A stretch of DNA of 61,364 bases, filler included, from Sphacelaria rigidula (lineage: Eukaryota): assembly GCA_964200075.2 (NCBI GenBank). It is 5 parts of 5 records of this genome, joined end to end, with 100 filler letters (N's around TTAATTAATTAA, not from the genome) between each part and the next. Parts side by side here need not be neighbours in the genome. Positions count along the whole stretch, not along the records: positions 12,295 to 24,488 come from CAXNAA020004021.1; 4 more parts are not named here. One strand, written 5' to 3'. The notes under the pieces were generated by a model. The model saw only the letters and a program-made list of their open reading frames with translations. It made no database searches and was not told the DNA's origin. The position numbers were made by a program, and so were the translations under genes. Each line of letters starts with the position of its first letter. Position 1 is the first letter of the stretch. Shown here one piece after another: positions 1 to 61,364 of the stretch.

Positions 1-1494
1 CCCGGCGCCCCCCCCCCCCCTGAAAAGGGAGGTGTGGCGAACGTAAAAAACCAAAAACAAGAAAAAAAAATACACCCCCCCCCCCCCCCCCCCCTGTGTT
101 TCGAGGGTCGGCCAGTCTACATGGGCCCTTGTGCAGCCAACCGTTCCAACACCGTGCGGTGAATAATGGCCCCTGTAAAGTACAATTGACGTTTGGGGAT
201 GGTTGTCTTGGTATTTGCGAATTTGGTCATGTTTAGTAAAGCTCTATAGAAAAGAGTCTTGTGCCCGATGCAATTCTTCCTGTTGTGGACAGCAAAAGCT
301 CGCGGTGAGCAGTGCGCTCGAAGTCCTCTGGGCGCAGTGTCCACGTAGCACACTCGTGTTGCATGGCTGCCACCATCTCCGCTTCGAGCCACGGAAGCTT
401 GAGCGATAGCTGGGCATTGGGTCGGTTGTAGAATTGAGAGATTTACCTTCAGAAGACCTCTCGACAGCGCTTGTGCGGCGCGTACTTTCAGAGGAGATAT
501 TCGCGTTTTCGCTGCTTGCACCAAGAGAAGTTTTGCCTCGACATGCAGTGTGGTCTCTGAGGAGCGGGATACGGGAGCCGCGTTGGTGTTCGGGAGAACC
601 CACCTTCACATCCTCGAAGACCTTGTGAGGTCTGCCCGGTACAACTTCTGGGAGCGCATAACGAGCATGTGTCACGAGGGAAGGGCTTTTGATGACCAAT
701 CTATCCCCATGTTTTACGTTTTTCCCCTTAACCCTTACGGCGGGAGAGCGGAAGGCGGTGCATCTCGCGGCAACTAAGCCAGTCCGACCCTACCGACGCG
801 TTTCCCTCTCCCGCTGAAATCATGATCCATCCCTTGATACTTTGAAAAATCCACGTCATCATCACCAGTCCGGGTCTGTCCAGTGAGCAATGGTGATACG
901 TACTTTGCAGGTCGCTACTGTAAGCTCCTTGATTTCGGATCTAGCTCCGGCCACAGTGCACTTTGGAGGCCTTGCTTCGTCCCCAGTCTTGCTTCCACTC
1001 TTCCATACGAGCAGGTTTTCATCGTTCCGATTTTTTCCTTGGCTACCTTTTTAGGTGTATGATTGGTGACAGCAATCCTGAAATGGCATGATAGCATGGG
1101 CATACTTCGCATTCTCGGACGTGTTTCGCATCCGTGTTGATCATCTCCCCGTTCCCTTTCAAAATGTTCCACGTTTAGGACGAGTCATCACGGGTACGAA
1201 ATACCATATCCACGATTTCTCCGGCCTGATTGCCCAAAAGGGAGAAAAAAGTTGACCGCTGGGCCAAGGGGTATCCACGCGACTTTTGCGCCATTCCACT
1301 TATCTGGGCTGCGTGAATCTGGGTTGCAAGGCTGAAAACAAAGTCTAGGGATTGATTCGTGCGATTCGAATCAATCACACTAAAACCAAGTAATTTCTAG
1401 GCGAATCGTTGACTCATCCGACCCTTGAAGTGTTCAGTGCGTTCGTCCTTCCTCTTTTTCCCTTGTTTCTCCTTTCGCTTTGTTTCTGCTTCAG

Positions 1495-4400
1495 ATGTCG
1501 CGTCGTTTGTGTATGTAGCGGCCGGGATATCTGGAGCCATCGTGATGGTGGTTAGGATGCGACGGGTTAGGCGTCAGCTGAATGAGTTCAGGCTGATGAC
1601 GGTGAGAGTTTTAGCAGAAACGAAAGCCACAACTAGAAGTTCAATAATCTTCAAATATTACCTCAGCCCTGCACTGACTACACGAAGAATATGGGATAAA
1701 TGGCAAGGAAGCATTCGTCCATTAAACTCAAGTCACTCGCGGCGCTATGGACACGGTGATGATCTGACACGAAATGACCACGGCTCTTAGTGCTCGAAGG
1801 GTCAACAAGCATAACTCAGTCATTGGTATGGACGACGTGTGCTCGAACATCTTAGCATTGCTCAGTAGCTTGCAGATACATGGTTCCCGGTATTAGCCCT
1901 TCAAAGATGGGAGCTTGATCGATGGAACGGTTGTCTCACACCCCACCTGTCATCACCTGATCAGCTGCGGATCCAACCCTGACCATTTGACAGATGTACT
2001 AGAGGTGAACAAAACGGATATAGCTCATCACTGGGCAAGCACTCGAATAAAAGATGTTCGAAAAAATAAACAGCAATGGAAAGCAGAAGAGCTCGGAACG
2101 ATTGAATATTTGTGAAGGGGGAGTTAGTTTCAGGCAGTTCTATTTCAGCGTTAATGATGACGGCAGGACGCTTTCCTGCGGTGGCAGCACGCTGTTCAGT
2201 TCCCCGTGAGATAACCAGCCAAGAGTACGATGGTCTCAACACTTATCAACAAAGATGTAAGGGTTATGCCCTGGACATCACGGTTTACGCTGCTTTTTTA
2301 TTCCCGAGAATCCACAGAGGCATGAGTTCCACACTAAATTCATCATGTGGAAGCCATCATGTGGGGTTCACCCGCCAGGTAATCAGTCATTTCTCCAATC
2401 CTTTATGTTACCACTTGGCTCGGGAGGCGGAAGATTTGCAGACTTGTTGGCGTTCGGATTGGAGTCGCTGCTTCCCGCGGCATGCCCTCCGCTTCTTGTT
2501 CTTTTTCTCAAGGACTGACTGACCTTGTGTGTCTTCGCAGGCATGCATCTGGCTTTTCTTTCAACGTGGTTCGTGCCTTTTCATCTGGTCCAGATGTGTC
2601 CACCGCCCCAGAGCGTGGGCTTGAATTTCAAGCTTCTCCGCTTTTCCGGTCCTGTTGGTGCTGGTGTTGCTGTCGCTGTATGTTTTCGACCAGCGTCTGG
2701 TTTTGTGTGCTTCCTGAGCCTTTCCGTCCTCCCTCAGTATTGCCTCCCTCCCCTCCCCCAGATGACCATAATCTTTGCGCTTTCCCTTCTTCTCGCTCGT
2801 TCGTTTTGGCACTGCTGTGGTACAGACTTCGTTGGCGTTTCTCTTGATTTGGTCGCTGTACCTTCTTCCTGTGGGGGAGTGGATGTGGCAGGCGTACCCT
2901 GCTATTCCCCGAAGATTGGTCATGGTCGACAACTTCGTGGTGAGATCCCGAACTATCTTCCTCTTGTCTATTACGTTGGTATCTTCCTCTGATATACATA
3001 TACATATATGTATATATATATATGTATGTATTGCACTTCTTTTTCAATCGATGCAGTTGTTCTTTCATATTTCGCTTCTGTATTGATAACCCATCTGCTG
3101 CATTTGGCGCCCTGGGATTACGTGAGACGGTTACACATTTGTAACCTTCATGCGCTGTGAATTATCTGCAAACACACTGCAGCGTACAAGAGGCACACAT
3201 GTTGTTTGCGTTTGTGGATGTTTTGTTGTTTGCGAGCTATACGGTAAAGCACAGGCTGGGGATCCCCACTCGATGATACGTGAATGAAATCGCCGCAACG
3301 TACACCTTAGTGGGAAAACACAGGGGCAGTATGAGTAGCCCCTTTTCAAGGTGGGCTGTCGTGTTGTCAGTCGCCCAGAATCTCGACTTCTTGAACTTTG
3401 AGAATACTGCGGTGCTTCAATCGACATGCGTTCGACTTCTTCATTAAAGATACTTTTTGCTACTATGAGATCGTTTTCTCCATCGAGGGTATAAACATCA
3501 TTCGCTGCATTGAAGGTGAATGGGGCATGAGCCAGCCCTAGGCTTTGGTGCTCAAGTCGGGGCGGTTCGTGTTCACCTCACCGATTTCAATTCTGGCGAT
3601 GAGCAATTATTGGATGGTCCTGGAAAATAGGGTTGAGTTTTCAAATGGGGCCGAACACAACCGTCAGAAAATTCACATTTCCCCCATGACAGTTTTGCAA
3701 AAACAATCAACTATGGGTTCTATTTGCGTGCTGACACTTCCCCTAGCTTGCCGTGTTGCGCATTGTTGCTCCGGTTCCTAAAGCCAGATGTACCTTCTTT
3801 CGTACGCTCGAAATAAATGGCTCTCACCAGGTGAGAGGAGGAGCTTTCGTCGGCTTCCTTCGTGCGTCATCAGAAACGTTTTGCCGTTTTTTTCGCACGT
3901 CTCTCCGAGTGATCAAATAAGGAATGGTTTCATGAGAAATAAAGTGCCAACGTTGGTGTTTCGGCAAATAAACTACATTACTGGAAACGTTGAACGGGTT
4001 TAGAAATGGGAAATATCACTCGTGAGAAACTCCCTGCCCATTCCGAATTTTCCTTGGACTCGAAAAAAACTCCGACACCGTGTTCTCCAAAGTAAGGGGA
4101 TTCAATCAAAGTGGCTTCCCTCATCTGTTGAAGGCAGTTTCGAATTTACGAAAGGAGATGGATACATATGGTTTTTTACAGCGGAGCAACAATTCCCCAA
4201 AAGGCAAGCTAGCGAAGTTTTAACAGGAAAATTAAATCCTCAGTTGTCATTTGCAAAACTGCTCCGACGAAAATGTTTCTTTTTCGGAAGGTGGGTTCAG
4301 CCCCATTATAATGTTCAACCCTATTTTTCAGGATCCTTTTTTAATACTAGGCGAAAGTCGTGACCAGTCCATGCGGTGCGTGTGCTCACCTAAACAAATG

Positions 4401-11967: not shown

Positions 11968-12194
11968 GTCTATTGCCGTGCTCTGGGAAGTTCAATTCCA
12001 GGGTACAAAAACATGTTGATCATTATCCTGATGTGTTCATGCCCTTCTTCATGACGGACATCGATGAGATGGCGTCGACAAAAGAGTGTCCTTCATATCA
12101 CAAACAAATTCTGGTAATATTATGCCCATTTCCCTTCCCTCTTGCCCTCCGTGCCCCCCCCCCGCCCCCCCCCCCCCGCCCCCCCCGCCCCCCC

Positions 12195-12294
12195 NNNNNN
12201 NNNNNNNNNNNNNNNNNNNNNNNNNNNNNNNNNNNNNNTTAATTAATTAANNNNNNNNNNNNNNNNNNNNNNNNNNNNNNNNNNNNNNNNNNNN
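12195..12294. other. Artificial contig spacer (N-run with TTAATTAATTAA); identical spacers at 24489-24588, 36783-36882 and 49074-49173
   Basis: 100-nt N blocks carrying an all-frame stop linker; the flanking contigs have near-identical, descending lengths. Confidence 0.97.
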
Positions 12295-12718: not shown

Positions 12719-13838
12719 GGCGCGACCTATTTGCAGGTGGGGTATGCAAATAAGAGCGTACAGGTCGCGAACGCGTCCAGAACCAATCCCACGACAAACC
12801 CAGTTTCAAATGCTGATGAGCACACGAAACAACAGGCGTACGCCACAGTAATAGCGCACAGCAGGGCTGTAACACCGATCATATTTCTTTTGTTGTACTG
12901 TAGAGCAGGATGCTGTAAACGCAGGCGGCGATGAATTATTTGCTTTAAACTACCGGGAATCGTGAAATCATTTGGGGGGGGGGGGGCACTTCTTCAGGGC
13001 TATTTCTTGAAGAATAAAAATATGTTGATAGTTGATGGTTGCTGCGGCATGGACAACATGGTATTAGCTGGGTGTTCAAGTGTAATCCTGTCATGAGAGT
13101 GTGCATCGCGTAATGAAGACCTTTCACACCCGCCGCAGCCCATGCGCCGGAACACAGTGCATCCGGGCAGATAACGACATTTGGATGCTTTGAGTACTCT
13201 ACACGGCCGTATACCCGCAGGTAGGGAAACTTGTGAAATCACACCATCATCGTACTACAAGTACCGTTGTCTGCTGTCTGCTGTGCGGACTGTACACTAT
13301 GTAGAGCGGACAACAGACAACAGCAGTACTACTGTACAGAGCCTATACTGCTCCGAACAGTTGACAAGTGATGCGATACAGGACCAATCCCGCTACTCGT
13401 GCCGCCACTTGGATAGCCTGCACAGTACACAGACACAGTGTACAGAGAGCGTGGTGTCTTGTACAACAGCAGTGCAACAGCGGCATGATATGGCGGTATT
13501 CTCGATGGCAAGCAGTTTATGCATACTGTATACAGTCCGTGTTGTTAGAGCATCCATACAATCAAGCATGCGCGGTGCTCGGCTGACGAAGAACACAAGA
13601 CGATTGTTTGCTCATCAAGATCGACCAGAGAGTTTATCGCCACAGGCGTGTGGTCTTCTGCTCTACGACAATATGCTTTTTTTACTGCCCTGCCGTGGAC
13701 TGCTGTGAAGTGCGCCTGACCATTGTTTCGTGTTTGCAACATTTCGATTTGAAATTGGGTTTATCGTGGGTTGGTTTTGGAGGCGTTGGTGACCTGTACG
13801 CTCTTATTTGCATACCCCACCTGCAAATAGGTCGCGCC
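12719..13838. mobile_element. Non-autonomous Mutator-like (MULE) TIR element
   Basis: ~120-bp TIRs (GGCGCGACCTATTTGCAGGTGGGGTATGCAAATAAGAGCGTACAGGTC... and its reverse complement ending 13838). Flanks ATAAGGTAG (12710-12718) and ATAAGGTAT (13839-13847) form a 9-bp TSD with one mismatch. Confidence 0.75.
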
Positions 13839-15047
13839 ATAAGGTATGTACCCGGTACCGGTATTTGAGACATCTCATACCCTGCCGATACCGGTCCAAT
13901 CGGGTATTTTGAAACGTCATACCTACGATACCCACGATATCACGGTATTTCGAGATTGCAATACCTACCGTACCCGCTCGATCCGGTATTTTTAAAACTC
14001 ACACCTACGATACCCACGATACCAGAGTATTTCGAGATTTCAATACCTACCGTACCCGCCCAATCGTTTTTTTTTTAATGTCGCACCTACGATACCTACG
14101 ATACCAGGGTATTTCGAGATTTCAATACCTACCGTACCCGCTCAAGGTATTTTCAAAACTCATACCTACGATACCTACGATACCACGGTATTTCGATATT
14201 TCAATACCTATGTCGTGAGAGAAGCTGTCGCCCAGTTCTCCAATTGTAGGTTCTAACAGCTAGATGTCGTGTTCAGTCAAAGCCAGGATGAGAGAAGGAA
14301 CCGCTGTGCCCAAAGCAAGAAAATGTGGTTTGATACTTCCTTCTTCCGTTATTTGTACTATACTTTGTATCGCCACACACAAGATAGCACTCGTAACTCC
14401 GCTGAAAGTAGCAATCAAAGCCAAAAACCGTTAGCCAAAAACCAGAGGTGTAAAAAGGAGTGAAGCTCGCGGGTGGTGAGTCCAGACAACCCTTCTGCCC
14501 TCACCCCTGTACCTCTTCATCCCTTCTATCGTACTTGACCACCTAACCTGTGATGTTAACTCTAAAAGAACTCACTCTTCAGTCTCAGAGTACACCCAAC
14601 AGTCAGTTTTTCCTGCATGTACTCCAATACTAGGCGACAGGACGTCGATTTCCTTGAATCTAGCCTTTAACATACCCTTACTGCTCTGACCTTCTGATCC
14701 AGAATACATTTTTTTCCCAACCTCTATCACTTTAACATCGACCATACCAACTTCTTTTTAGCCCGAACTAGGTTTATGCTTTTGAAGCCTTGAAATGCTA
14801 CAATTCCATCTGTGAACTCAGGACAAGTATTCATTGATGATGCTTTATCCCGATTTACCCGTACACAGTTCATACTTTCAAACTAGAACTAGTTCTGTAC
14901 AAAACCATAACGCCTCCGAGAGATCGGCTCACCACACTTACCGTACCCGCTTAATCGGGTATTTTCAACACTTATACTTAAAATACCTACGTATACCACT
15001 GTATGGGATACCTCGGTAAATACCGGGGATGTACCCGGTAATACCGG
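13839..15047. mobile_element. MITE-like element built of ATACCTACGATACC/CCGTACCCGC tandem subrepeats (copy 1; left end at 12704, interrupted by the MULE and the solo LTR)
   Basis: ~70-bp degenerate tandem units, colinear with the copy at 16050-16388. Left end CCGTAGATAAGGTA (12704) is the reverse complement of TACCTTATCTACGG (ending 16387). Confidence 0.65.
14211..14936. mobile_element. Solo LTR (726 bp)
   Basis: Starts TGTCGTGAG and ends CTCACCACA (inverted TG...CA termini). It cleanly interrupts the host repeat CAATACCTA|CCGTACCCGC, with a 4-bp TSD CCTA/CTTA (one mismatch). Confidence 0.75.
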
Positions 15048-15504
15048 ACGCGATGCACTCCCCACGGTGCAGCAGCTGGTCCCAACTTATTGTGCAAAGG
15101 CCAGGAGTTGTCGGACCACGTACGTTTTCACAAGTGTTGTATACCCAAATTCCCCCTGATTTTTGTGTTTGGATCAATTTGAAATGAACTCATCATTATG
15201 TAGTCTGAAGTGCGGTCGTTTTTCTTTTCTCCATCTGATAGGTCCACTGCACTTCTGTTCTTAGAAGGCTTCAACTCCAACTTTTAATTAGTGGTGGACG
15301 GAGAGAAACTACAAAACAAATACACTAAGCTTTTTCGATCGAAAACATACGATCTAAAGGCACGAAGCGGCACTTGACTCCTATCTTACAGACCACCACA
15401 CCAGATAACACCCGTTCACAGAACCATGCTAACTCCATCGAACCCATTCTCAGCTACCATCCCAATGCTGCAGCATCGAGTACAAATTGAGCACACGGGG
15501 ATAG

Positions 15505-15890
15505 ATACCCTGCAGTAGTTGTGTATGCTTTCTTTATTTTCTGTTGGCGAAAACTTGTGCATGTTCTTTCATGGTAGGATCAGCGACGGAACTGCGTGGT
15601 ACGGTAGGCTACCGTGTTGCGTCCACGCTAATGTACAGTGCAGGCAGTACAAAGCTGCACGTTGCTGAAGTCCTTTTCACGTCGCGTTGTAAGCAGAGAG
15701 AACTGATGGTCCTGGGCTGTCTGCACTGCACGTTGCCCGCTTCACTTGAAAATCTTACTGTACAAAACACACACACACACGCACTCGAGACACACTGCTT
15801 GCAAGCAGTGCCGACAGTACAGACTGTCTGCACTGCACTGTACTGTACTGTACTGTACACGAATGACCATGTACCATTGCACGAATTCCA
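15505..15890 (+). repeat. Dispersed ~380-bp repeat; second copy at ~33915-34267
   Basis: Colinear similarity, e.g. GAACTGCGTGGTACGGT and ACAAAGCTGCACGTTGCTGAAGTCC...CACGAATGACCATGT, on two different contigs. Confidence 0.8.
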
Positions 15891-16049
15891 CCGTCTTTTT
15901 TCGATCGAAAGCTTGAAAATTCGATTCATACTCGACAAAAATGTGCGATTTTTGTTCGAATCAATTCTACCGCCACATTTTTTCGATACAATTGTTTTCG
16001 CCAAGACACGCCCTGAAACGCTTCTCCGCTGTTTTGAATTCGGTATAAA

Positions 16050-16388
16050 GGGTAAGGCAGGTACCCGGCACTGATATTTGGGACATCTCATACCCTACCG
16101 ATACCGACCCAATCGGGTATTTTCAAATGTCATACCTACGATACCCACGATACCTACGATACCATGGTATTTCAAGACACCAATACCTACTGTACCCGCT
16201 CAATCAGGTATTTTCAAAACTCATACCTACGATACCCACGGTACCACGGTATTTCGAGATTTCAATACCTACCGTACCCGCTCAATCAGGTATTTTCGAA
16301 ACTCATACCTACGATACCCACGACACCACGATATGGGATACCCCGGTAAATATCGGGGGTACGCTTGGTACGGTACCTTATCTACGGT
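16050..16388. mobile_element. MITE-like subrepeat element, copy 2
   Basis: Same tandem units as 13839-15047; right end GGTACGGTACCTTATCTACGG. Confidence 0.65.
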
Positions 16389-16447
16389 TCCTGTGGAATA
16401 TACTACGCATAAGAGGAAGAGCACCACATAACAACGCACACCACCTC

Positions 16448-16522
16448 GGGGGGGGCGTACTCATTTGTTGCTTGCCTTGGTCATTTGACCATTGACCACG
16501 CATCCCTTTCGAGACGGAGCAC
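16448..16522 (-). mobile_element. ~70-nt oligo(C)-tailed SINE-like retroposon, copy 1
   Basis: Minus strand reads GTGCTCCGTCTCGAAAGGGATGCGTGGTCAATGGTCAAATGACCAAGGCAAGCAACAAATGAGTACG(C)8. CACACCACCTCGGGGGG is duplicated at 16437 and 16523. Confidence 0.8.
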
Positions 16523-16639
16523 CACACCACCTCGGGGGGAGGGGTGCATTGGATTCAGCAGTTAGTAGAGAAATAATACAAGGGGAGATGATGCCATTTT
16601 CTGTTCGGTCTCCTCCCTCCTCTCCTCAAATCTCCCGTT

Positions 16640-17262
16640 GAATCGCACGTTGTCGGCTGGCCTCTTCCTCGATCTTTTGCCGGGAGGTCATGAACCTCCC
16701 CGCTCTCTGCAGCACCCCCGCGTGCCATGGTATTCCCCCTTCCCTCTTCGCTTCTGAAGGCCAGGAGGCGCTTTCAACTCAGGACGTCTGTCGGTTGTCG
16801 TCCGTAGAGCCGTTCGTGGCTCCGAAAGCTTGAAAGTCGTCCCGCAGGGGCTTCAGCCAGTTATGCCCAGTGCACCCTGGTCCTGGATTTCCCCCCCCCC
16901 CACGAGTTCTTCGAATGCCACTCGCTTCGGGAGTCGTACGTCCGGTTGTCCAGCCAGGGCTCCAGCGAACAGCAGTCGCCGTTGTCGGACGACGGCTTTG
17001 GCACTTTGGCATTCGGTCTTCTTGAGGGCCTGGGCGTATGACAACTGTCGGTATGTGCGCCACACACTCGGCGCTGCCCGATAACCCGCAGAAGGAGCCG
17101 GTAGTGTACCGTCCTTGGCAACCGGTAGTGCTCGCTGCGCGGGGCCCACGTCATGCATCCATACAGTAGGACTTCCATCGCCTCTGCCTTCAGCGGTCGG
17201 ACCTTGAGTTCCCACGGTGCTTGCGGTCGGTCAACGATCTCCCGGGAAAACTTTCTGATGCA
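16640..17262 (-). mobile_element. RTE-type non-LTR retrotransposon (LINE) C-terminal relic, frameshifted
   Basis: LKVRPLKAEAMEVLLYGCMTW, RQLSYAQALKKTECQS, RQRRLLFAGALA and RLPKRVAFEEL match motifs typical of the post-RT C-terminus of RTE-clade ORFs; they are split across frames. Confidence 0.75.
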
Positions 17263-17874
17263 CTAGCTTTTTTTTCTCTTTTCCTTCCCCGTGCTTCGTA
17301 TATTTGTCCGTGCAGCTGTGGCTCACCCCATTACGGTACAGGAAAGCGACGGTAGGCACGATACGAGGTTGGTTCAGCCCCGCTCGGCGCCAAAATCCGA
17401 TTGTTGACGACCTTTTGTGTCTAACCCCATTAACGCTGTCCCCAATCCCAACCTAAGATGGACTGAGACCCCTCGGGCAAGGTGGGTCGAAGTAATGCCC
17501 TAGGCGAAGTGTGCTTCGTTTTTGCTCGAATCGACATTCGAGGCGCCAGTTCGAGTCAAAACACGTGCTCCGGACGGTGCGCACGCCGCGCGCGCTCTGG
17601 GCGACCGCTGGGGACTGTGAGCCTTCTCTGATCCGAATGTGATGATGGATGTTCAACCATCGGAGTTTTCGCGCCGAACTCGCGTGAACTGTACTACAGT
17701 GCACAATACGTCCCCTGCAGTACAGCAGCTATGATACAGTACGTGGATAATCAAAAGAAGGGTGCGTCTGTATCTTCACCCCATCATGTTGATAGAAGTC
17801 TCTGGTGACTTCCCCTTTCCCGAACCCCGCCAACTCGTAATGTTTTTCCTTTCATTTTAATCAACGACCAAAAG

Positions 17875-20800
17875 GTGCTGCTGCGATGCCCGGAGGTGAC
17901 TATGGCCTTTGCACCCGAGGAATCCATGGGCTTGGGAAACCTAACCATCACCAACATGTGAGAGGGATTTTGATTCGATTTGATTTGATTTGATTCGGTT
18001 CGATTCGATTCGATTGATTGATTGATTTTCGTACATTAACTGATCTCCGAGGGATCCAGCCATGGTTACAAGATAGCACACTCTGGACTACAGACTGCAA
18101 TAGATTACATTGTCAAAAAATGTACTGCGTACAGTATGGAATTTATTGTCTATTCCAATAGACGCAATACTCTGTACTGTGCGCAGTACACTTTTTGACG
18201 ATGTATTCGTTGCCCGGGGTGTGTAAGAAAGTCGTACCCCACGGTGAAAAACACAGAAAGACTCCCTGAGGGAAAGTCGAGGAAGGGGGCATATACAAGA
18301 AAATATATATATAGAAAGATACAAGAACAAGGTAGGCCGTGGCACACCGGCCTGGGAGCACACGAAAATTAGCCCGCGAGCCGCTCGGGTATTTGCACAA
18401 GGGAAATATTGGAAATTTGTCGGACATTCCACGAGAAGTTGGCTAAGGTCAGTTCTTGTAGGGATCTTTCTCTCTCTTTCTCTCTCTTTCTCTCTCTCTC
18501 TCTCTCTTGCTCTGAAAATAGTTGCTTAGCGGTGGCAGCTTTCTTGCCGCGTCCAGCAGTCGCCGAAAGTAACAAACCAACCTTTGAAGCGTGAAGCTCG
18601 TAACCGACCAAAATGAGGGATTTTCGGCTGGGCGTTACTGGGTAGTAGCTCATATTGTCGGAAGCCATTTGCGCAACCAAACGGAAGTGTCCAGTGAGTA
18701 GGTGTACGGGCCATTCCCGGTGCATACAGTACAATACGGTACAGTACAGCTTCTATTTGCCCACCTGTGTGCGAACCTGCGGCCAACAGTCGTAGCTCCC
18801 ACCACGATGTCAGGGCGGCAGAGTCGTGTCGTTGGGGTATGAAGTCAACAGCAGCCACGGGCCAGCAGCAAGTCGATTTGCGCGAAATATGCCAGTCGAA
18901 AAACTATGATAAGGACAGTACGGTACTACAGTTCACACCCACAGTTTGCGTTGTGTACTTGATACAGTGCGCATTTTTGTTCCTTTTTTCCCCTTGTTTC
19001 GTCTTCTGCCGTTCGTGATTGATCCTACTTCGAGGAGTACGTTTCAACAGCCGATTCCAATTTTTGCGGTTGAACACTAAAATGGGGGTTCAACTCGCCT
19101 TCGAAAAATCGAGAATTCGTGCCAAAGAGTATCACCACGGGAAAGCATTTTCGCAAGCAGAGCTTCTAGTGCAGTTCAACCGGTGTGGTTAGGTGCACTA
19201 AATGGATGCCGTGCACACGCGTGTCGATGACGATGTCACCAGAAGAGCAACGGGGGAGACAAATTCTACGATAGCCCCCCCCCCCCAAAAGTGCATGGTT
19301 TTGGGACGCAAAATCTTCACATAAATCGAAATGGGAAAAGCCAAGCACAGTGAGCAGCTGGAAACTCCCACGCTTGGGTTCGTTCTAGCCAATGTCGCCA
19401 ATTTGAGGCGCTTCATGCAGCCTGAACCCAACATCAGGCGCTGTATGACCATTTTTTCGTGACACGTTGTGGCTGGTTTTGGGGGGGGAGGGCTATCGTG
19501 AAAAGTGTCTGGAGAGGAAGCTCCTCGCCGTGTCCTGTGTGTGTCCTCGTTCGGCGATTCCCAATCGCTGCAGATGTTGATCGGTTAAATCAAGACTATT
19601 GTCGCAAGCTGCCAGAATGCGCATTCCCTCCCTCCGGCCAGGTGTCAATAAACGATGTTACAGTTTGTGCAATCTCCAAGAAGCATTGCCGGGCCCCGAC
19701 AGAGTTGTGTTCGAATGAAATTCACCCTTCTCCAATCCCAAAGCGTTTTCTAGGACAAAAAAACAATTTCGAACATGAACGGGTCCACTTCAGTTCGGTT
19801 CTGTACTGATGCTCGATGCAAATTCCAGAATCGTTCGGCGAAACTATCCGGATGTGTCCTCGAACGGCTGACCGAACCCAACTCCAGCACTTTCTCCCAG
19901 CTTGCGAAAACAGTTGTGATTGAACCGATCAAGATTCTAATATGATTATCCTTCTCCCTCGCAAGGTTTGTACAATCGAATTGCTACAGGCAGTTAGTAC
20001 ATGCAGCGACGAAGTTGCAGTAATATTCCGGGCTGAACCGACTGCCCACTACTACTGTCGTTGCTTGAAAGCTCTGCTCAGGCAAGACCTTCCTGGTCAG
20101 CGCTTAACGGCGCGGTTCAGGAATGCAATGGCAGGGGCTTAATCATGAGACGCCCCTGTTCCTAACCATATATCCCCTCTGCTTAGGATGAGTCTCCTCA
20201 CATAACAGTTTTTTGCGACAGACACCCCCCGACACACACACCATACGTGTGACCGGTTGACAGCACAGAAGCTCAATTGCAGGATCTCAGCCCCCATTTC
20301 GGTCACGCCAGCAAGAGTTGAGTCACCCGCACGAGGTATCTTTTTTCACTCCGCATACCAAGAAGGTCTACACGAGTGTTTGATCTCTCATATGTCCTTC
20401 CCTCTACTGGGATGTAGCAGACTGTCTGTTGTCCTTGTTTTGCAGACGTCTGGTGAAATCAACGACTGACTGCAATAAAACCCCTCAGCTTCTGACTATT
20501 AGATCATGCCGCAAGGGCGCAGCCGTCCTTGCTCGCATGTGTGCGTGTGTGAGAACAGTAGCGGTGAGGGGAACATCACCCTGCTTTTCGACGATGTGTT
20601 GTACTGCGCACAGAGGCACTTCCTGTCCAAGCAGAGAGGCAGAGATCAATCGATATTTTCATTGGTCAGCGCCACAGACAGGAGACGACAACCTGGGCAT
20701 CCCGCGATATTGTTTCCGCGGCTGTGCTACAATAATCCGCCTGCCCACACATGGCAACCTGGGTATGTGCTGGTACTATAACATGATTGTAGTGCGTGAG

Positions 20801-21297
20801 AGGACCGCGTGCTCAGAGGACCGCAACGGAGTTTGAACATCCCTGTGGTTAGGGTTAGGGTTAGTGTTGGGGTCAGGGTCAGGGTCAGGGGCGTGGTCCC
20901 TGCAGGGACTGGCCCGATTGGTTTTGAAAAACGTCGATCCTGAGGTGTTTCGAACTAGGATGCGATCCCCTAAGCACACGGTCCTCTCACGCATTACAAT
21001 TTTGCCAATCTCTGCAGCGATTGGGAATCGCCGAACGAGGACACACAAAGGACACCGGCGGGGAGCTTCCTCTCCGCCGTTGCTCCTATGATGATATCGT
21101 CATCGACACGCGTGTGCACGGCATTCATTTAGTGCACTTAACCACACCGGCGTAACTGCAACAGAAACTCTGCTTGCGAAAATGCTTTCCCGTGGCGATA
21201 CTTTTTGGCGTGTGAATTCTCGATTTTTCGAAGGCGAGTTGAACCCCATTTTAGTGTTCAACCCCAAAATTTAGAATCGGCTGTGTTTTGGTTGTTG

Positions 21298-21328
<31 letters not shown>

Positions 21329-21542
21329 TGTTTTTGATGTGCGCTGTGATTTGTGCTCTCTCTTGATCCTCCCTCCTTTTTTACCCCCCGGCGCATTCCC
21401 GCCCTTGCGTGAAAACAGGCGGGTGGTGTGGCTAAGCAGCGAGGATGACTCCAAAGCGTGTGATTTCGACGTACCGTACATCTGCCTTCACGCAATATCC
21501 AAGGACCCGGAAACGTTCCCAACGCCGTGCATTTACTGTCAG
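17875..21542 (+). CDS. CLNS1A: pICln / methylosome subunit (Voldacs domain), internal two exons
   Basis: Exons 17875-17957 (VLLRCPEVTMAFAPEESMGLGNLTITN, phase 2) and 21419-21542 (RVVWLSSEDDSKACDFDVPYICLHAISKDPETFPTPCIYCQ) join in frame (AT|G). The product matches the ICln signature G.L.IT..RVVWLS....D...I.LHAISRD...FP.PCIY.Q. First and last exons were not found on this contig. Confidence 0.85.
17964..18028. repeat. (GATTT/GATTC/GATT)n microsatellite
   Basis: Direct reading. Confidence 0.85.
19257..19510. mobile_element. 254-bp MITE nested in the left TIR; partial second copy at 49174-49345
   Basis: TIRs AGACAAATTCTACGATAGCCC / GGGCTATCGTGAAAAGTGTCT. It is absent from the partner TIR, has a probable GG TSD, and its internal sequence recurs at the start of contig 5. 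Confidence 0.75.
20786..21000. mobile_element. 215-bp MITE carrying telomere-like repeats
   Basis: ~40-bp TIRs (ATTGTAGTGCGTGAGAGGACCGCGTGCTCAGAGGA / TCCCCTAAGCACACGGTCCTCTCACGCATTACAAT) enclosing (TTAGGG)n then (TCAGGG)n at ~20847-20890. Confidence 0.65.
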
Positions 21543-22007
21543 GTATGTGCCATTTGGCCAGTCCAGTACTCTGGTTGCCGGGATATGCGCCATTTGGTCA
21601 TGCTTCAAATACTCTGGCTGTCAGACCTCCTATTTGGTCTTTCTTCAATACCATGACTGGTAGGATACAGTATGTGCCATTTGGTCATCCTCTAAATGCT
21701 TTGAATGTCATCAGACATGTTTCATTGGGCGATTCTATATTACGACGGTTACCCAAAGGCACACGGCCGACTGCACAGTACAGCGTCGGGCGTTGATAGA
21801 GTCCAAACGGAACAGGTCAGTATCGGCCGTATTGCAATCTCGTGTGCTCTATCTTCGCGGCTGAAGCATGCAGTGATCTGCGTGTGTTTTTGTTCAAGTG
21901 ACCGAAATACTAATTTTTGTTCCTGTAGTGCGCACGCATTCGGCAGCATTTCCATTTGTTGTGTGATACGTTGGACATAATTTTGTCGGCACTGTGTACT
22001 GCGGGTT

Positions 22008-24067
22008 GTCATTCCTTCTGTTCTGGACGCCAGTCTACACGTTTCGGTATATGTAGGCGCACTAGCCGGGGTCACACGGGAGGAAAGCCAACATATGAGT
22101 TTTTTTTTGTCATACATTCTGTGGTGTTTTCCTTATGTTTTTATCGTGAGAGGGGTCCAGCACTGCCTTTCCCTCGTTGACCGTTAAGTCGAATTCTGCA
22201 AGGTTGTGTTCTGTAGGGTAGGGTTTTCTGTATACCCAGGGCATTTTGCCGCGTATTGACCGTACCCGATAATTCTGTGACTTGTGCAAGACCTTCATAC
22301 CGTTAACCGACAGTTCTGTAAACTCTGTAAGACTTTCATACTCTTATACCCGATAGTTATGTCATCTCTGTAAGACTCCCGTACCGTTACCGGGGGGCAC
22401 GGGTACGCGCTCGATAAGATACCTGATTGCGGGTACGGTTTTCTGTGCAACCTCCATACCCTACCCGACAGTTCTGTGAGTTTTGTACAAAATGTCTACC
22501 CGTACCCGGGGCTCGGGTATGCTCTTGAAGAAATACCCGATTGCCGGTACCGGTTTTATGTAAACCTCCCATGCCGTACCCGACAAGTTCTGTAATTTCT
22601 GTAAGACTCTTATCCAGTACCGGTACCCGACAGTTCTGTGAGCTTTGTAAGACTCCCATACCCCTACCCGGGGTCAGGGTATACCGTCATAGATATACCC
22701 GATTGCGGGTATGAGCACAGGTACATACCTTGGAGAGGTGCGGATATAGGTTCAATTCAAACACAACCTCATGACCTGAACATATACCTCGCATCGCGAT
22801 CGAGCCACCCAACTCCTTCATTCAAAACCCCACACCAACAATAATTCAGTGTTGGAAAGTTCTTTAGTTTGGGATCTGACAGGATACGAGGTACCGCTGA
22901 GTGGAAACACGAAACATGAGCAGCCCTGCAGACCGTCAGGATGGATCACCCCTAGACGCGAGTGGTGGCTCGAGCGGGGGTGGTTCATCTGCGCCACCAG
23001 AGGATCAAGTAGCAAGACGCATGTCATCGACGTTGATGGTGGTTGTGCCGTGGTCATCAAACCCTAGGGTGTTATCGACATGCACAACACAGATTATGAG
23101 CTGCCACCGAAAGTCGTCAAGGCCGTCGGCGGTTTTGTCGCGTGCCGAGGGGCTTCTAGAGAACGGGCAGCCATGAATGCTCCTTCATGCACTCTCTGGG
23201 AGTGTACGTGAAGCCGATAGATGTTGACGATCCCGTGGACATGTAGTACTGCTATTGTTCGTGTAGTCTTTCTCTATCAACCCCGTGACAAAACCGTTCA
23301 TAGTTGTCGTGGACTGTCACCTGTACTTCGCCACTGTCGTAGTGACGTAGGTCTCACCACAGGGGGAGTGATGATAATACCAAGGTCGTGTTCTGTAGGG
23401 TACGTTTTTCTGTATAGCCGGGGTATTTGGCTGGATATGTACCGTACCCGACAGTTATGTAAACTCTGTAATATTCCCAAACGGTACCCGACAGTTATGT
23501 AATCTCAGTAAGCCTCCCATACCCGTACCCGATAGTTCGGTGAGTTCTGCAAGCCTCCCGTACCGTTATCGGGGGTCACGGGTATGCTCTTGATAAGATA
23601 CCCAGTTGTGGGTACGGTTTTCTGTGCAATCTCCATACCTTCACCCAACAGTTCTGTGACTTTTGTACAAGAACTTTACCCTAACCCGAGGGGCGGGTAT
23701 ACCCTAGAAGAGATACCCGATTGCCGGTACCGGTTTTCTGTAAGCCTCCCATACCGTACCAGACAAGTTCTGTAATTTGTGTAGGACTTTCACACCGGTA
23801 CCCGACACTTCTGTAAACTCTCCAAGACTTTCATACCGGCACCCGACAGTTTTGTAAGTTATGTATGGGATCTGGTACCCTACAGAACGTACCCGTATCT
23901 TACAGAACAAAACCTTGGAATAATGTGTACCAACGACACGGTCGCTCTCCGCTGTTGGGCATTGTGTGAGGAAAATCCCAGATCGTGCGACTTCGCCGAG
24001 ATTCGAATCCACGACCCAACCGTTAAAAGGTTTCGAGGTTACCAACTGAGCCGCCGGGGCGATCGGT
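22008..24067 (-). mobile_element. tRNA-derived SINE split by a 1.7-kb insertion (SINE parts 22008-22197 and 23924-24067)
   Basis: Both parts are colinear with the intact copy at 43207-43576. The minus-strand head has A-box-like CGGCTCAGTTGG and B-box-like GGATTCGAATC. Confidence 0.75.
22198..23918. mobile_element. Composite TIR element with TACCCGACAGTTCTGT subrepeats (two units, ~22198-22733 and ~23380-23918)
   Basis: Ends CAAGGTTGTGTTCTGTA / TACAGAACAAAACCTTG, with a second left end at 23380; the two repeat blocks are colinear. Confidence 0.65.
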
Positions 24068-24212
24068 GCACTATCCGGCACTGTCACCACTAACTTTGAT
24101 ACTATCCCTGCTGTGTACCACCATGGCGCATGGCGCTGGAGGGCACGCCGAAACTGCGTACCATCACCTCGCATTAACGGATACAATTTTTTTCCCGTCC
24201 TTTCTTTTTTTA

Positions 24213-24290
24213 GGGGGGGGGGGGCGTATTCATCTGTTGCTTGCCGTAGTCGTTTGACCGTTGACCACGCATCCCTTTCGAGACGGAGCA
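24213..24290 (-). mobile_element. Oligo(C)-tailed retroposon, copy 2
   Basis: Same ~70-nt body; exact TSD TTCTTTTTTTAGGGG at 24202 and 24291. Confidence 0.8.
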
Positions 24291-24423
24291 TTCTTTTTTT
24301 AGGGGTGGGCTATTGAAAACTTCTAGCTCGCGGAGGAAACAAGAAAATATAAAGAGGATAGCTGACTTTGTTCAATGGTTGTGTTGGTCGCATCAGAGGA
24401 AGTTGCGAGAATCTGCGCTTGCA

Positions 24424-24488
24424 GGGGGGGGGCGTACTCATTTGTTGCTTGCCTTAGTCGTTCGACCATTGACCACGCATCTCTTTCG
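24424..24488 (-). mobile_element. Oligo(C)-tailed retroposon, copy 3 (cut by contig end)
   Basis: Near-identical body running into the gap. Confidence 0.75.
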
Positions 24489-25863
24489 NNNNNNNNNNNN
24501 NNNNNNNNNNNNNNNNNNNNNNNNNNNNNNNNTTAATTAATTAANNNNNNNNNNNNNNNNNNNNNNNNNNNNNNNNNNNNNNNNNNNNCCCCCCCCCCCC
24601 CACCCCTTCCCTCTTTTTTTTTCTCCCCCCCCCCCCCCCCCCCCCCCTTCCCACATGTTGCCCTCAACGTTCTTCGTCCTTGAGAGGAGGATGAACAGCT
24701 GATTTCCTGTACACCACGTCGTGTTCAACTTCAACTGTCCCGTAGGAACGATCCAAAGTTGATGAGGTCCGAAGTGATGCGCGCAGGATAGCCCGTTTAC
24801 CAGCTAATGGAATCACAAGTTGGATGGCAGGGGCGTTCAACATTTTCATAGCCTGCACGATCTATGGTCGAAAGATGCAGTAGATGAGAGCTGTACTGGT
24901 GAAAGTATAGGTCTATTGCAACTATTGTCGGCTGTCAGTAGTTGCAATAGACCTATACTTCATCCCGTACATGTTTTGTATATTGCATCCCATAACGAAA
25001 TATTGTTATCATGCAGGGTGTGAACATTTTTCCGTGTGATATACTCACTCTCGTTGTCGGTGATTTTTGACGGCACGAATAATCGATAGATCAATTCACC
25101 AATCGTTGATGTCAACATCACGCGATGGCTACTCCGCAGCCAAAAACCCTGAGTCCGTTGTTGTTCATACCTCCTGCCACATCTCGGCAGGTTTTTCGAC
25201 GGGCCCTTCCCGTTTCACAATCTAGTGTTGCACTCCTTGCGTTTGGTCTGCCTTGACTGAAGCAGTTCGTATGAGTATTTCTCAAGAAGGCTGCAAAGAT
25301 GAAAGTGAGGAGAAAAATCCCTGCGACGGTGCAATGGGCGTCTTGTGTTCGAATAATTTTGCCTGAAAGTGCGAAATCATTTTCCAACAACTTGGGCCAA
25401 TAAGAGGATGGTGTGTGGAAAGTGTCTTGTGTGCACAAGCCGCGATCGAATCCTCGCATCGCCTCGAGACACACTGTGAAGGTATAATATCCCCGGTTCG
25501 GCCCAGAGGCAGGCCTCGTGCGTACCCCCGGAAACAACGCAAGGAGTATGCTGTAATCCTCGTGATGCAAGGAACCATGGTGTACGGTAGTGTTGTAGAA
25601 TAGGTTTGGAGCGGAGAGACATACCTGTGTCACACACATATGTATGTATGTATGTATACATACATACATACATACCCTTGTGTTATGTGACTTCCATATA
25701 GCACTCATCAGTGAAACGCGCAGATCCTACAGTATTAATAATACATGTGTCAACCCAAAAGCAAGTTGTGGGGAAAACGAAATGACCAACATCGCATCGT
25801 TTGTCGCGTTTTGTGTCTCGGCGGCATACTCCCGTCTTTGGTCTCCTTGGTCTCCTCCCGCAG

Positions 25864-28665
25864 GTTGCGGTTTTGGCTGGGGACTACTTGTTGGCGAGGG
25901 CTTCGGTGCTCCTGGCGCGTTTGAACAATGTACAGGTGAGAGGGGGGCGTCGAGGTCGTTCTCATTTGTTGCTTGTCTTGGTCGTTTGACCAGTGACCAC
26001 GCATCCCTTTCGAGACGGAGCACTGTTCCTACTACTTGTCGAGGCACCTCCAACATTTGAGCGCTCACCACGCCTCTGCCACCACACTACACGGACACAT
26101 TTTACTCTCTTACCCCTTTCCTGTCTCGCCGACTGTGGCTACCATATATCTCCCAGTAAAGCTATAGTTTTTCTCGCCACTTCCCAATGCATCAAATGAT
26201 TTCATGCCACCTCCGTTTACTTCCTACATTTACCTCTCTAGCACGCCCCTTTTCTCCTCGTGTAGTTCACATTCTGCCACTAGATGAGATTTACTCTCTG
26301 GTTATTTTTGCCACAATGGCAATTCTGTGCATCTCCCTCCTCCTCCACTCGACTCCTGGGAGATCTATTCTTTCTGGCAGGTCCAGGTCCCCCACCCGCA
26401 ATCGCACTTTCCCTTTTTTCGCTGATTCCACGGGGCCATGCACCTATGTTGTCATCCCCATTCCCATTTTCAACTCCCGATATACCATGAGGTGTTCCTC
26501 CTCGTCTACTTTCCGTCTTGGCGCTCCTTTTCCCCTTATTTCCATCATGTCCACTACTTTTGTTTTGTACCCCTGCATTCAGAGGGCGGGGCATGGGGTG
26601 AGCGGGGGAGATGGAGGGAAAAGAGCAAAGCCCATGTTGCAAGAGAAACAACCAAGCTGTCGGCGGTCGTTGTGTTCTACGAATATTTGACATACCCCAG
26701 CTCACCGTGCACGTGCGCCGGTGTTGAAAAGTGGTACAAGTGTAGGTCACAAATCCAGCAAATGATCAAGTACCCCTACTCCCACCCTCACCTTCATGGA
26801 ATATCGACGAACCTGTCCATGACTGTCGTGTTCGAGTAAGACACGGCTTGAGTTCCATCCGGTATCTTGTCGAGATGGGGACTGATCTCTGCAGCTCGCT
26901 TTCGATATCCCCCGTGGAATAACGACGTGATGAACCAGGTGGTGGAAATCATGGCTACCGCTCTGGACAGCCTGGTGCAAGGGGAAATTATGCAGCTCAA
27001 GATGGATCCAGAGAAGATGCTGGACATCAGCCAGTACCTGAAGAAAAGCTACTACAAGACGGCCAGTCTCATCACTAATGCGTGCAAGAGCTGCGCCTTG
27101 CTGGGGGGGCACGAGTTCGACAGCGACGTGAGTTTGAGGTCTTGGCTCCGTGTAACCAACTGTTCGTGATTAGCTGGCTGGCTGGCTGACTGGCTGACTG
27201 GCTGGCTTTTGAGGGTCCGCCTCCCTTGTGTCCTCTTTTGTTTTGGTCTCCTGGCCGGGTTTGCGTGTAGCGAGTGTCCGTTTGGCGGTTTCCCTCCCCT
27301 CCTCGTACCTTATTCGTCTGTGGTTTTCCTGGTCGAGCTGGGGTGACCGATCTGTAAGTGTTGGACGTTTAATTCTTGGTCCTTAGCGTATACCTCGTCA
27401 TCATCGTTTTTCTTGGGTACGTCCATCATGACACCACGGCTGGACCCCTGGGGGGTCGGTTCAAGTGCGTCAATCAACCAATCAGTCATTCAATCATCCA
27501 CGAGTGGACTCGTAGCCGATCACTTGGGACCCCTTGACCGCCATGATGGTCCTGTGTATGTTTCCAGCTATGGTTTAGTTAGAAACCACCAATATTATCT
27601 CCACTCGGAAAACCGACCGTTGGACCCAGATGTCCACTCCAGCCGTCGAAGGGTCGAATGGTTGATGAGCAACAAGCGGAGCGATCAAACAATCGAGTAG
27701 TAGTGGTGCCGGCCTCGATCACAGTGTCGCTAAGGAGGTACCAGGGACACACCGCTTGCGATTCATGTCTCTCGTAAAACTTCGTACGCGCTGAAAAGCC
27801 TCTGCAATATGATTTGGGACACATCGTCTGTGGTGGTGATCGATGTTCATACGCGGGGGAGTTCCTCAGTACGCCGCGTTTGCCGCCCTCCCCCTTGTCC
27901 TCGTTCTGTTCTGCCCTCGTTGTATTTCTTCGTCATGATCCACCGTGTTTTCATGTGATGAGTCGCCATCCATGATCGTTCTCTGCCACGTCTGTCATGA
28001 TCTGGGATTGTTCACCATATATTTTGTTGCGTTGTGTGTCGTTGGCTGTCACAGGTTGCAACCGCAGCTGAGGAGTACGGGTACCACATGGGGCTAGCCT
28101 TCCAGATCATCGATGACATCCTTGACATCGTGGGGGCGGCTGATGTAAGCAGCTGGCATCGATTCGGTGTCGATCATGCAATGATTGTGTGGACGTCCAA
28201 TCGTTCTTGTTAATGGTACATATTTTTCCCATCGAAATCGAAAGGGCACTCGCCGTGTATCAAGATCTCTAGTGAACAGAGAGCAAGCCTCGTCTGCTAC
28301 CTGGGAAGAATCTGAACCTATCGTGTTTTTTCGTTTCACGGGTTTCGCCTCGTCTCCTCCACACACCCACATCCTTTCTCCCCTTCGAACGCCGGCACTT
28401 TCTTGCTCTGATCCTCTGTGTGTGCCGCTGCTCCTTGTTTTGTCTTGTGTTGTTGTCATTGTCCATTGTTGTCTTGATCCGTGGTTGTTGTGGCTGGTGT
28501 TGTTCGGTTTCGTGGCTCCTCCGATGTTTTCGTCATGCGACGAAAAGACACTGGGGAAGCCAGCAATGGCGGACATGTCGCTGGGGCTTGCGACTGCGCC
28601 TATCTTGTACGCTGCCGAAACGGAGCCGGGGGTGAAGAAGCTTATCAAGCGCCGATTCAAAAACG

Positions 28666-34327: not shown

Positions 34328-35883
34328 TGTCCGAGCGTTCAACATCGGCACCCTGCAAACAATGAGAGACGGTTTAAAATCAGCCGAAGGACTGAAACAT
34401 GGGACGTGTGTTGTCTCACTCTACTGCAGCACAAACACACTCGCTTTCGCTCTCTCTGTGTTACGGTATGGGTGATTCACCATTTTGTCTCCGCCCGTTG
34501 TCGGCCCCAACTTTACAGAAACAGAGGCAGGGATTTCCGAGTACCCCCTCACCTCAAAACGCCCCAGGAGTGTGTCCGTGAACGTGGTTTGCGTCACAGA
34601 CAGCGTGCCTCTATCCCAGTCTCTATCCACTGCGCACCCCATGTTCGTGGGAAACCTTTTGTTGAGGATTTTGCCCACCTTTCCTACGTATTCCTCAGAG
34701 CCACTGATAAGGATGTCGTCCACATGGACAACTAAAATCACACGCACGTCTTCTGCATCCTCCACCTTGAAAACGCATGGGTCAGCCTCACACTGCACCA
34801 TCCCGACATCCTCCAGCAACGTTTGACACAGAAGACGAGACCACTGCCTGCTCGCTCGCGTGATCCCGTAAATAGAGTTTTCAAGCTTCACGGTCACGTC
34901 TGTCAAAACGGAGCAACCTTCAGGCAACCTCATGTATACATCGGTATCCATTTCCGCTTGAACAAAAGCCTGTGTCACATCAAAATGGTACAGCGGCCAC
35001 TCTTCCTGAACTGCACTGCCATGACCAGTTTGATGGAGGCCATTGAGGGCGTTGCCGCGAAAGTCTCGAAATAGTCGGCTGCAAAACGTTGTCCAAAACC
35101 TCGCGCTACCAACCTTGCCTTTGCCTTCGTTACAGTACCATCTGCGTCGGTCTTCCAACTAAAAACCCACTTCGCTGAAATCACGTATGCTGCTTCCGGT
35201 ACAGGGCCAGTCGAAAATGTTCCAGCCTTTTCGTGACCTTCTAGCTCGGCCTGCATCGCGCCTAACCATGCCTCTCGAAATTCTGACTTGGTAATGTCAT
35301 CCATACTGGTTGGTGCTGGCTCTATTTCGCTTACGTGTAGACCAACCGGTGAACGCAAACCGAATTCAGACTGCCCTACCGTGTTTTCCTCAGCAACAAA
35401 ACAAAAAAAATCGTTTTCAGCTAACTCGTGTTGAGTCGAAACGATTGCGTCTTGTCCAGCCACCTGTCCTGCTGCAGCGGTGATCATCCCCATGGTTGAG
35501 CGTTTGTCCTCCGCCATTCCCGCCAGCGCCATCTCCACTTCCTTCTTGCTTTCCTCCGCTCCGCCAGCCACCAGCGTTTCGTCTCGTGCGTGTACCGACC
35601 CCATTGCCTCGTGCGTTTTGATCTTCGTACGCCCCGCCCTTGGTGTTGGTAGCCGGTCAGCCCACGCAAGACGACGCTGCTCGGTCCTCGGGAGTTGAGG
35701 AGCGTCGCCGCCCCCCCCGCCATCTTGCGAGGGACCCGTGGAAGAGGGTGACAGTGCGGGCGACGAGGCAGTGTCCGATGCTGATGTGAGCGTCGGCGTA
35801 GGTGTCGGTGTCGGCGTAGGTGTCGGCGTCTGCGCTGGTGTCTGCGTTGGCGTAGGTATCGGCGTCTGCGATGATGTTGGCGT

Positions 35884-35921
<38 letters not shown>

Positions 35922-61305: not shown

Positions 61306-61355
61306 GGGGGGGGGCGTACTCATTTGTTGCTTGCCTTAGTCGTTTGACCATTGAC
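61306..61355 (-). mobile_element. Oligo(C)-tailed retroposon, 5'-truncated copy 6
   Basis: Lacks the 5' ~25 nt; ATCCTACG is repeated at 61295 and 61357. Confidence 0.75.
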
Positions 61356-61364
61356 TATCCTACG

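Follow-up and report, generated by a model that had tools for sequence, protein, structure and literature searches.

The DNA analyzed here (the window) is a 61,364-nt stretch of the Sphacelaria rigidula genome assembly. It consists of five contigs of approximately 12.19 kb each, between which spacers of N and TTAATTAATTAA were placed (N at positions 12195-12294, 24489-24588, 36783-36882, and 49074-49173). The DNA is eukaryotic with split genes, and its Pfam matches include fragments of TrmO_N, Voldacs, a Copia-type reverse transcriptase (RT), and polyprenyl synthetase. The polyprenyl synthetase gene has exons at 25864-25935 and 26939-27118 on the plus strand, which correspond to positions 83-104 and 106-162 of the PF00348 profile, respectively. 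Matches of exon size to TrmO_N (41088-41570, plus strand; E = 3.6e-23) and to Voldacs/ICln (21255-21653, plus strand; E = 4.1e-08) represent ordinary host genes located near copies 5 and 2, respectively, of the repeat described below. In addition, fragments of RVT_2 were found in two frames at 34424-36030 on the minus strand (E = 6e-18 and 6e-10), which points to a degraded LTR retrotransposon.

Repeat finding (families D7 and D11) and a word-7 blastn search of the window against itself yielded a total of six copies of a short repeat in a single orientation on four of the five contigs, at 16448, 24213, 24424, 25942, 42192, and 61306 (copies 1 to 6). Every copy has a G-run at its left end (8, 12, 9, 6, 14, and 9 G, respectively), just as the earlier note had described. 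The 58-nt core of the repeat (16460-16517) gave two matches at three or fewer mismatches in the window, compared with zero expected from 100 shuffles. The copy at 42192 represents a divergent subfamily, with approximately 78% identity to the others in the self-blastn search. Public contigs of three DNA runs (X1, X3, and X4) were compared with positions 14000-24488, and the counts given here are those of the best-supported rows. In these contigs the repeat has different flanks by the hundreds, which supports a high copy number, as had been proposed from the window, and at least 712, 632, and 323 loose ends lie before 24424 in X1, X3, and X4, respectively.

Other repetitive sequences are also present in the window. 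Direct repeats of approximately 82 nt and 41 nt, rich in TACCCG/CGGGTA, occupy 13837-14194, 16053-16416, and 22273-23877, beside copy 1 and at other places on contig 2, and are high-copy in the public contigs. A second high-copy repeat contains a G-run in a conserved context at 19275-19286 (minus strand), 19481-19488 (plus strand), and 49318-49327 (plus strand). Similar sequence is found on both sides of its run. The pair 19337-19429/49174-49266 also belongs here, inverted arms are located at 19121-19259 and 21071-21209, and the depth of public contigs in X1 is approximately 0.9 million in the bins 19250-19599 and 20650-20999. There are 26 G/C runs of 8 nt or longer in the window against 13 A/T runs (e.g., G/C runs at 8-20, 75-94, 12154-12194, 24589-24647, and 48980-49004), and several contigs begin or end in C-runs.

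The structure of each copy, all of which read on the minus strand, was as follows. Copy 1 (16437-16539) consists of a left target-site duplication (TSD; 16437-16453), two extra G of the tail (16454-16455), a 67-nt body (16456-16522), and a right TSD (16523-16539); the duplicated sequence is CACACCACCTCGGGGGG (17 nt), with a gap of 0 nt to the element. Similarly, copy 2 (24202-24305) has a left TSD (24202-24216), eight extra G (24217-24224), a 66-nt body (24225-24290), and a right TSD (24291-24305), the latter being TTCTTTTTTTAGGGG (15 nt; gap of 0 nt). Copy 3 (24424-24488) begins with nine G (24424-24432) followed by 56 nt of body (24433-24488) and runs into the end of its contig, so that the visible part has neither a 5' end nor a TSD. 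The bodies of these three copies are the 3' end of the LINE identified below. Copy 4 (25935-26608) is a longer, 5'-truncated copy of the LINE, in which a G-run (25942-25947) and nine degenerate bases (25948-25956) precede a body of about 630-636 nt extending from 25957 to approximately 26583. Copy 5 (42188-42278), the member of the divergent subfamily, has the 9-nt TSD AAGAGGGGG (42188-42196 and 42270-42278; gap of 0 nt) on either side of nine extra G (42197-42205) and a 64-nt body (42206-42269). Copy 6 (61295-61364) carries a G-run at 61306-61314, a 5'-truncated body of 41 nt (61315-61355), and one extra T. Its TSD, ATCCTACG, is at least 8 nt long because the end of the window cuts it (61295-61302, the start of the left TSD, and 61357-61364), and the gap is 1 nt.

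The earlier note had listed four copies with direct duplications at the G-run, and these four are confirmed as duplications of 17, 15, 9, and at least 8 nt that abut the element with gaps of 0, 0, 0, and 1 nt. When the same search windows were placed at random 1000 times, an exact repeat of at least 8 nt was obtained 33 times, one of at least 9 nt 11 times, and one of at least 15 nt once, in a control that also counted repeats lying apart from the element. Copy 4 has a probable fifth TSD, GGTGAGAGGGGG at 25935-25946 and GGTGAGCGGGGG at 26597-26608, with 11 of 12 positions matching. This duplication is graded only as probable because it contains one mismatch and lies approximately 13 nt past the last aligned base. 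Truncation is on the ORF-proximal side in all five copies with a visible end (bodies of 67, 66, 64, 41, and about 636 nt), including the copy at 61306, whose 41-nt body is shortened opposite the G-run as had been noted; the truncated end is thus the 5' end in five of five measurable copies.

Copy 4 is located in antisense orientation in a 1003-nt intron (25936-26938) of the polyprenyl synthetase gene and makes up approximately 650 nt of it. Through its probable TSD, GGTGAG, the sequence of the 5' splice site, is present twice. The gain of an intron through copy 4, as by an introner, was considered and rejected, since the flanking exons are contiguous in the profile and the probable TSD only repeats the existing splice site within a pre-existing intron.

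On the sense strand, each insertion reads TSD, truncated LINE, C-run, and TSD, and every TSD starts with C's, the same homopolymer as the tail. In the three copies with complete exact TSDs, the left G-run exceeds the G-run of the right TSD by 2, 8, and 9 G. This excess suggests that C's from the RNA, or slippage, were added at each event. The predicted nick sites of the four copies with a complete right TSD are GGGGGG/AGGGG, AGGGG/TGGGC, GGGGG/AGAGG, and GGGGG/AGATG (the slash marks the nick; the last is copy 4, with its probable TSD). The target at all four is therefore GGGG, the predicted nick, and then A or T. No contig that spans an insertion point but lacks the element, as an empty site would, was found among the public contigs, which are short pieces that break at repeats.

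These features bear on whether the G-runs have any biological tie to the repeat or are a sequencing or assembly artefact such as two-color poly-G. The C- or G-runs at the termini of several contigs and the predominance of long G/C runs over A/T runs (26 to 13) would be consistent with such an artefact. However, the runs are internal with unique sequence at their flanks, and the right-hand TSD repeats part of each run. Furthermore, the same junction is present in copies from independent collections (L002, L004, L005, and L007, described below) and is also recorded in entries of the curated Ectocarpus repeat library. An artefactual origin is therefore given a negligible probability.

Past 16523, at least 517, 432, and 319 public contigs of X1, X3, and X4, respectively, continue into one common sequence, and this sequence is the one that also follows copy 4 in the window. 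It is therefore apparent that the 70-mer terminates a longer sequence. When metagenomes were scanned with a motif of 22 letters, six loci were obtained, three of which were true copies (L002, L004, and L005). The other three (L001, L003, and L006) were rejected as chance matches of 22-29 nt without a G-run. A fourth external copy, L007, was obtained by scanning prokaryote genome bins, and its full 5259-base contig is L015; a pattern scan of viral contigs gave zero matches. The 70-mer is present at 96-99% identity beside 8-13 G in L002, L004, L005, and L007/L015, and a C-run tail is found in all ten true copies (six in the window and four external). The bin containing L007 is labeled as an uncultured bacterium, and only one contig of the bin carries the element. 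The presence of an intact eukaryotic LINE on a 5.3-kb contig of that bin is likely due to contamination by algal DNA.

In L002, L004, L005, and L015, a long open frame was found on the strand opposite the G-run. L015 contains an intact ORF of 1333 amino acids (positions 113-4114, minus strand) with Exo_endo_phos at residues 144-366 and RVT_1 at residues 714-963. Both Exo_endo_phos and Exo_endo_phos_2 matched the L015 ORF and the proteins P0001 and P0002, indicating an N-terminal AP-type endonuclease in the same ORF as the RT. Frames ending in the 70-mer matched RVT_1 with E values of 3e-31 to 3e-33. In addition, a CCHC motif (Cys-x-Cys-x8-His-x4-Cys) was read from the C-terminal part of the frame. 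The LINE thus has a single ORF of about 1330-1360 amino acids, whose stop codon TGA is located 5 nt before the C-run, with GTACG as the 5-nt UTR on the sense strand. P0001 (1360 amino acids; 80% identity to the L005 frame) and P0002 (1328 amino acids; 73%) have the same architecture; these closest full-length proteins come from metagenome contigs. Among solved structures, human LINE-1 ORF2p (E = 6.6e-21 with the RT of P0001) and R2 proteins match best. Of the named proteins, the closest to the element is P0003 of the brown alga Ectocarpus sp. CCAP 1310/34; this gene model is chimeric, and its C-terminus belongs to this LINE family (66% identity). In L015, the distance from the tail to the contig end is at least 5.16 kb; no TSD of 9 nt or longer was found at this full-length copy, and the contig may be collapsed or chimeric.

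The copies in the window were then related to this LINE. In tblastn, the last 20 amino acids of P0001 matched copy 1 with 100% identity (16523-16464), and its last 19 amino acids matched copy 2 with 84% identity. Copy 4 aligned with L005, L002, and L004 over approximately 620 nt at 72-76% identity and corresponded to amino acids 1158-1360 of P0001 in two frames, which implies a frameshift. Since the window copies encode the C-terminus of P0001 followed by the stop codon, the 5-nt UTR, and the tail, what had been described as a retroposon of approximately 70 nt is not an entity of its own and consists of the last 19-20 codons, stop, UTR, and tail of a LINE. The sense strand of the LINE is the minus strand of the window, in agreement with the minus-strand RNA that the earlier note had proposed. 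The C-run 5 nt past the stop codon likewise supports the predicted oligo(C) 3' end of that RNA, and the postulated partner with RT and endonuclease, ending in the same 3' sequence and C-run, has been found in L002, L004, L005, and L015.

A short sequence in many copies with flanking direct repeats could also be the end of a Helitron, a MITE, or another DNA transposon, with the G-run as part of the target or of the element end. The TSDs of the repeat, however, vary in length (at least 8, 9, 15, and 17 nt), while those of cut-and-paste families are fixed; terminal inverted repeats are absent, the two ends being unrelated; truncation is one-sided; and the sequence leads into an ORF encoding endonuclease and RT (EN-RT). 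These results contradict such a terminus, one of the findings that the earlier note had named as refuting its proposal, and make it very improbable. On the other hand, variable TSDs, one-sided 5' truncation, a simple-sequence tail, a non-LTR RT, and an AP endonuclease, the features that define a LINE, were all found.

The reading that we favor, with a probability of about 85%, is that the repeat forms the 3' end of an autonomous non-LTR retrotransposon, an APE-type LINE bearing oligo(C) in place of poly(A), that the six copies are 5'-truncated and "dead on arrival", and that they were inserted through priming at G-runs. The anatomy of the insertions fits target-primed reverse transcription. 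The insertion anatomy and the partner ORF are directly visible in the sequence, and from them we infer the specificity of the nick (past G-runs, from four target sites only), the pairing, and the origin of the tail. The endonuclease would nick one strand, the plus strand of the window, directly past a short G-run. The freed 3' G-run would pair with the oligo(C) at the 3' end of the RNA and prime reverse transcription, and copying of the tail or slippage would lengthen the run, as may have occurred where 2, 8, and 9 G were gained. A cut of the second strand staggered by 9-17 nt would give TSDs that start with a C-run on the sense strand, and cDNA synthesis ending early would leave truncated copies. 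When tails of earlier copies serve as targets, head-to-tail arrays would be formed. Head-to-tail joints from 16519-16523 to 24424-24430 are common in the contigs of the three DNA runs (at least 87 contigs in X1), as expected if the tails of old copies are used in this way. Taken as a whole, the mechanism and the strand of the earlier proposal stand, whereas its separate entity and its novelty do not.

The positions of the 5' ends were also compared. In three copies out of the five that can be measured, one of them the divergent copy, these ends fall within 4 nt of one another (64-67 nt). Among the public contigs, at least 178, 175, and 151 in X1, X3, and X4, respectively, stop at 16521, compared with the at least 517, 432, and 319 that continue. 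Plain random truncation of an element of 5-6 kb does not predict this pile-up. The class of 64-68 nt might instead be a discrete non-autonomous micro-retroposon, a minimal 3' recognition module with its own RNA 5' end that is mobilized in trans. This is suggested by the three body lengths of 67, 66, and 64 nt among the five that can be measured, the divergent subfamily included, and by the heaping of loose ends and joints of the public (Logan) contigs at 16519-16523. It is also in line with the library entries for the short LINE-dependent Ectocarpus elements RTEX-N1 and RTEX-N2, which share only a 3' end of 60-100 bp with their LINEs. Such units, however, have no sequence of their own, since all of it is the coding end of the LINE plus the 5-nt UTR, and there is no tRNA gene or Rfam family to provide a pol III head. 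Their ends are scattered inexactly over 4-5 nt, and copies of 41 and about 636 nt occur in the same family. In addition, the pile-up was taken from the best-supported rows, beyond which there are 7430 loose ends and 1710 joints, and thus it is not a full histogram. We consider a separate micro-retroposon of this kind to be unlikely.

The Rfam search that the earlier note had proposed gave zero matches at the gathering score in the window, and the number of tRNA genes in the window was also zero. A SINE was rejected, as there is no tRNA gene, no Rfam match, and only LINE sequence in the short copies. The consensus fold of seven copies had an energy of -12.67 kcal/mol with 19 pairs and zero compensatory changes, and the 181-nt fold of L002 had a z score of -1.08. 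Since these folds give no sign of a special structure, no recognition hairpin is claimed.

A speculative and likewise unlikely reading is that the units of 64-68 nt are no products of random truncation and form a discrete class, the minimal RT-recognition module of the (C)n-tailed LINE, re-copied alone and often head-to-tail, with a 5' boundary set by the RNA. Processing of the RNA, a stop of the RT, or a jump between templates might set it; as one candidate, the 3' end could pair with the distant 5' UTR. An exact 13-nt inverted match to the boundary at approximately 66 nt was found at 4740-4752 of L015, approximately 630 nt upstream of the ORF. This match (E = 0.035) was noticed post hoc when the final 200 nt of the element were searched against the single contig L015; it is a lead only and could be due to chance. 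If this reading is true, the smallest naturally amplifiable LINE unit would measure approximately 65 nt, and much of the G/C homopolymer load of the genome would be seeded by units of this size. In any case, 5' ends near 66 nt raise a small question about how LINE cDNA synthesis stops.

The LINE end accounts for a short repeat of high copy number, for some contig breaks in this draft assembly, and for part of the surplus of G/C homopolymers. Copy 3 runs into a contig end, and copy 6 into the end of the last contig, where the window also ends. Only 5 of 11 G-runs are tails of the element, and the load may therefore have further sources, such as additional (C)n-tailed families. Caution is also required so that fragments of this type are not filed as a new SINE. 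The tail-to-target pairing of LINEs, with C/G in place of A/T, is here indicated in a second genome, and by this pairing logic the endonuclease of brown-alga-type LINEs is a candidate G-tract nickase.

Mammalian L1 and Alu use a nick at TTTT/AA and have a poly(A) tail, and their TSDs begin with A's that merge with the tail. The LINE described here resembles them in having an AP endonuclease and an RT, a primer homopolymer that would pair with the RNA tail, variable TSDs starting with the tail base, and 5' truncation. It differs from them in that the homopolymer is C/G and not A/T, in its single ORF, and in its 3' UTR of only 5 nt. Polyadenylation cannot produce such a tail, which must consequently be templated or arise by slippage.

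Some elements of the R1, Tx1, and R4 groups are specific for microsatellites. LINEs with simple-repeat tails are also listed in the Ectocarpus library, in which RTE-1/2_Ec32 have a (CAA)n tail and CRE-1_Ec32 has a (CA)n tail (PMC12477816). In these LINEs as in the element described here, tail and target share sequence, which suggests priming guided by annealing. The present element is unlike them in that its repeat is a single base and its targets are ordinary short G-runs dispersed through introns and unique DNA rather than long arrays.

The closest known systems are RTE-X LINEs of Ectocarpus, for which the library contains seven families with 16,418 copies (Genome Biol 2025;26:320, PMC12477816). 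Its entries describe RTEX-1a_Ec32 (5867 bp) as having a "single EN-RT ORF; (C)n 3'" and a "C-rich" TSD and RTEX-2_Ec32 as having "(C)n termini/TSD", and the main text states that the LINEs are "frequently 5' truncated" (PMC12477816). The word "C-rich" occurs zero times in that main text, where tail and target are not discussed; they appear only in the supplement. A literature search for C-tailed LINEs found no paper among the matches listed, as judged from titles and the starts of abstracts. Two non-autonomous elements are also described in the library: RTEX-N1 (607 bp), which "can be present in tandem" and whose 60-bp 3' end is 83% like RTEX-1/2, and RTEX-N2 (188 bp); only their last 60-100 bp are common with the Ectocarpus LINEs (PMC12477816). 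The tandem RTEX-N1 of Ectocarpus has a parallel in the head-to-tail joints found here. "Sower", an unclassified repeat of the first Ectocarpus genome (approximately 2.5 Mb, 1.2% of the genome; PMC3145265), may be RTEX-N1_Ec32 (2.48 Mb), judging from total size alone.

As far as these entries describe them, RTEX-1/2_Ec32 and the LINE in the window share a single EN-RT ORF, a (C)n 3' end, a C-rich TSD, 5' truncation, and many copies. The ORF, tail, and TSD described for RTEX-1/2 were all found, and for comparison with their length of 5.5-5.9 kb, L015 gives only a lower bound of 5.16 kb. The two differ in genome and in family and were compared by description only. Since RTEX-1 and RTEX-2 have the same anatomy according to those entries (PMC12477816), the C/G analogue of poly(A) retroposition that the earlier note had regarded as novel is a type already in print. 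Membership of the present LINE in RTE-X appears likely from this comparison. It closely parallels the Ectocarpus RTE-X LINEs, to which it is probably related, and the family found here is a new, RTEX-1/2-like one of C-tailed LINEs inserted at G-runs.
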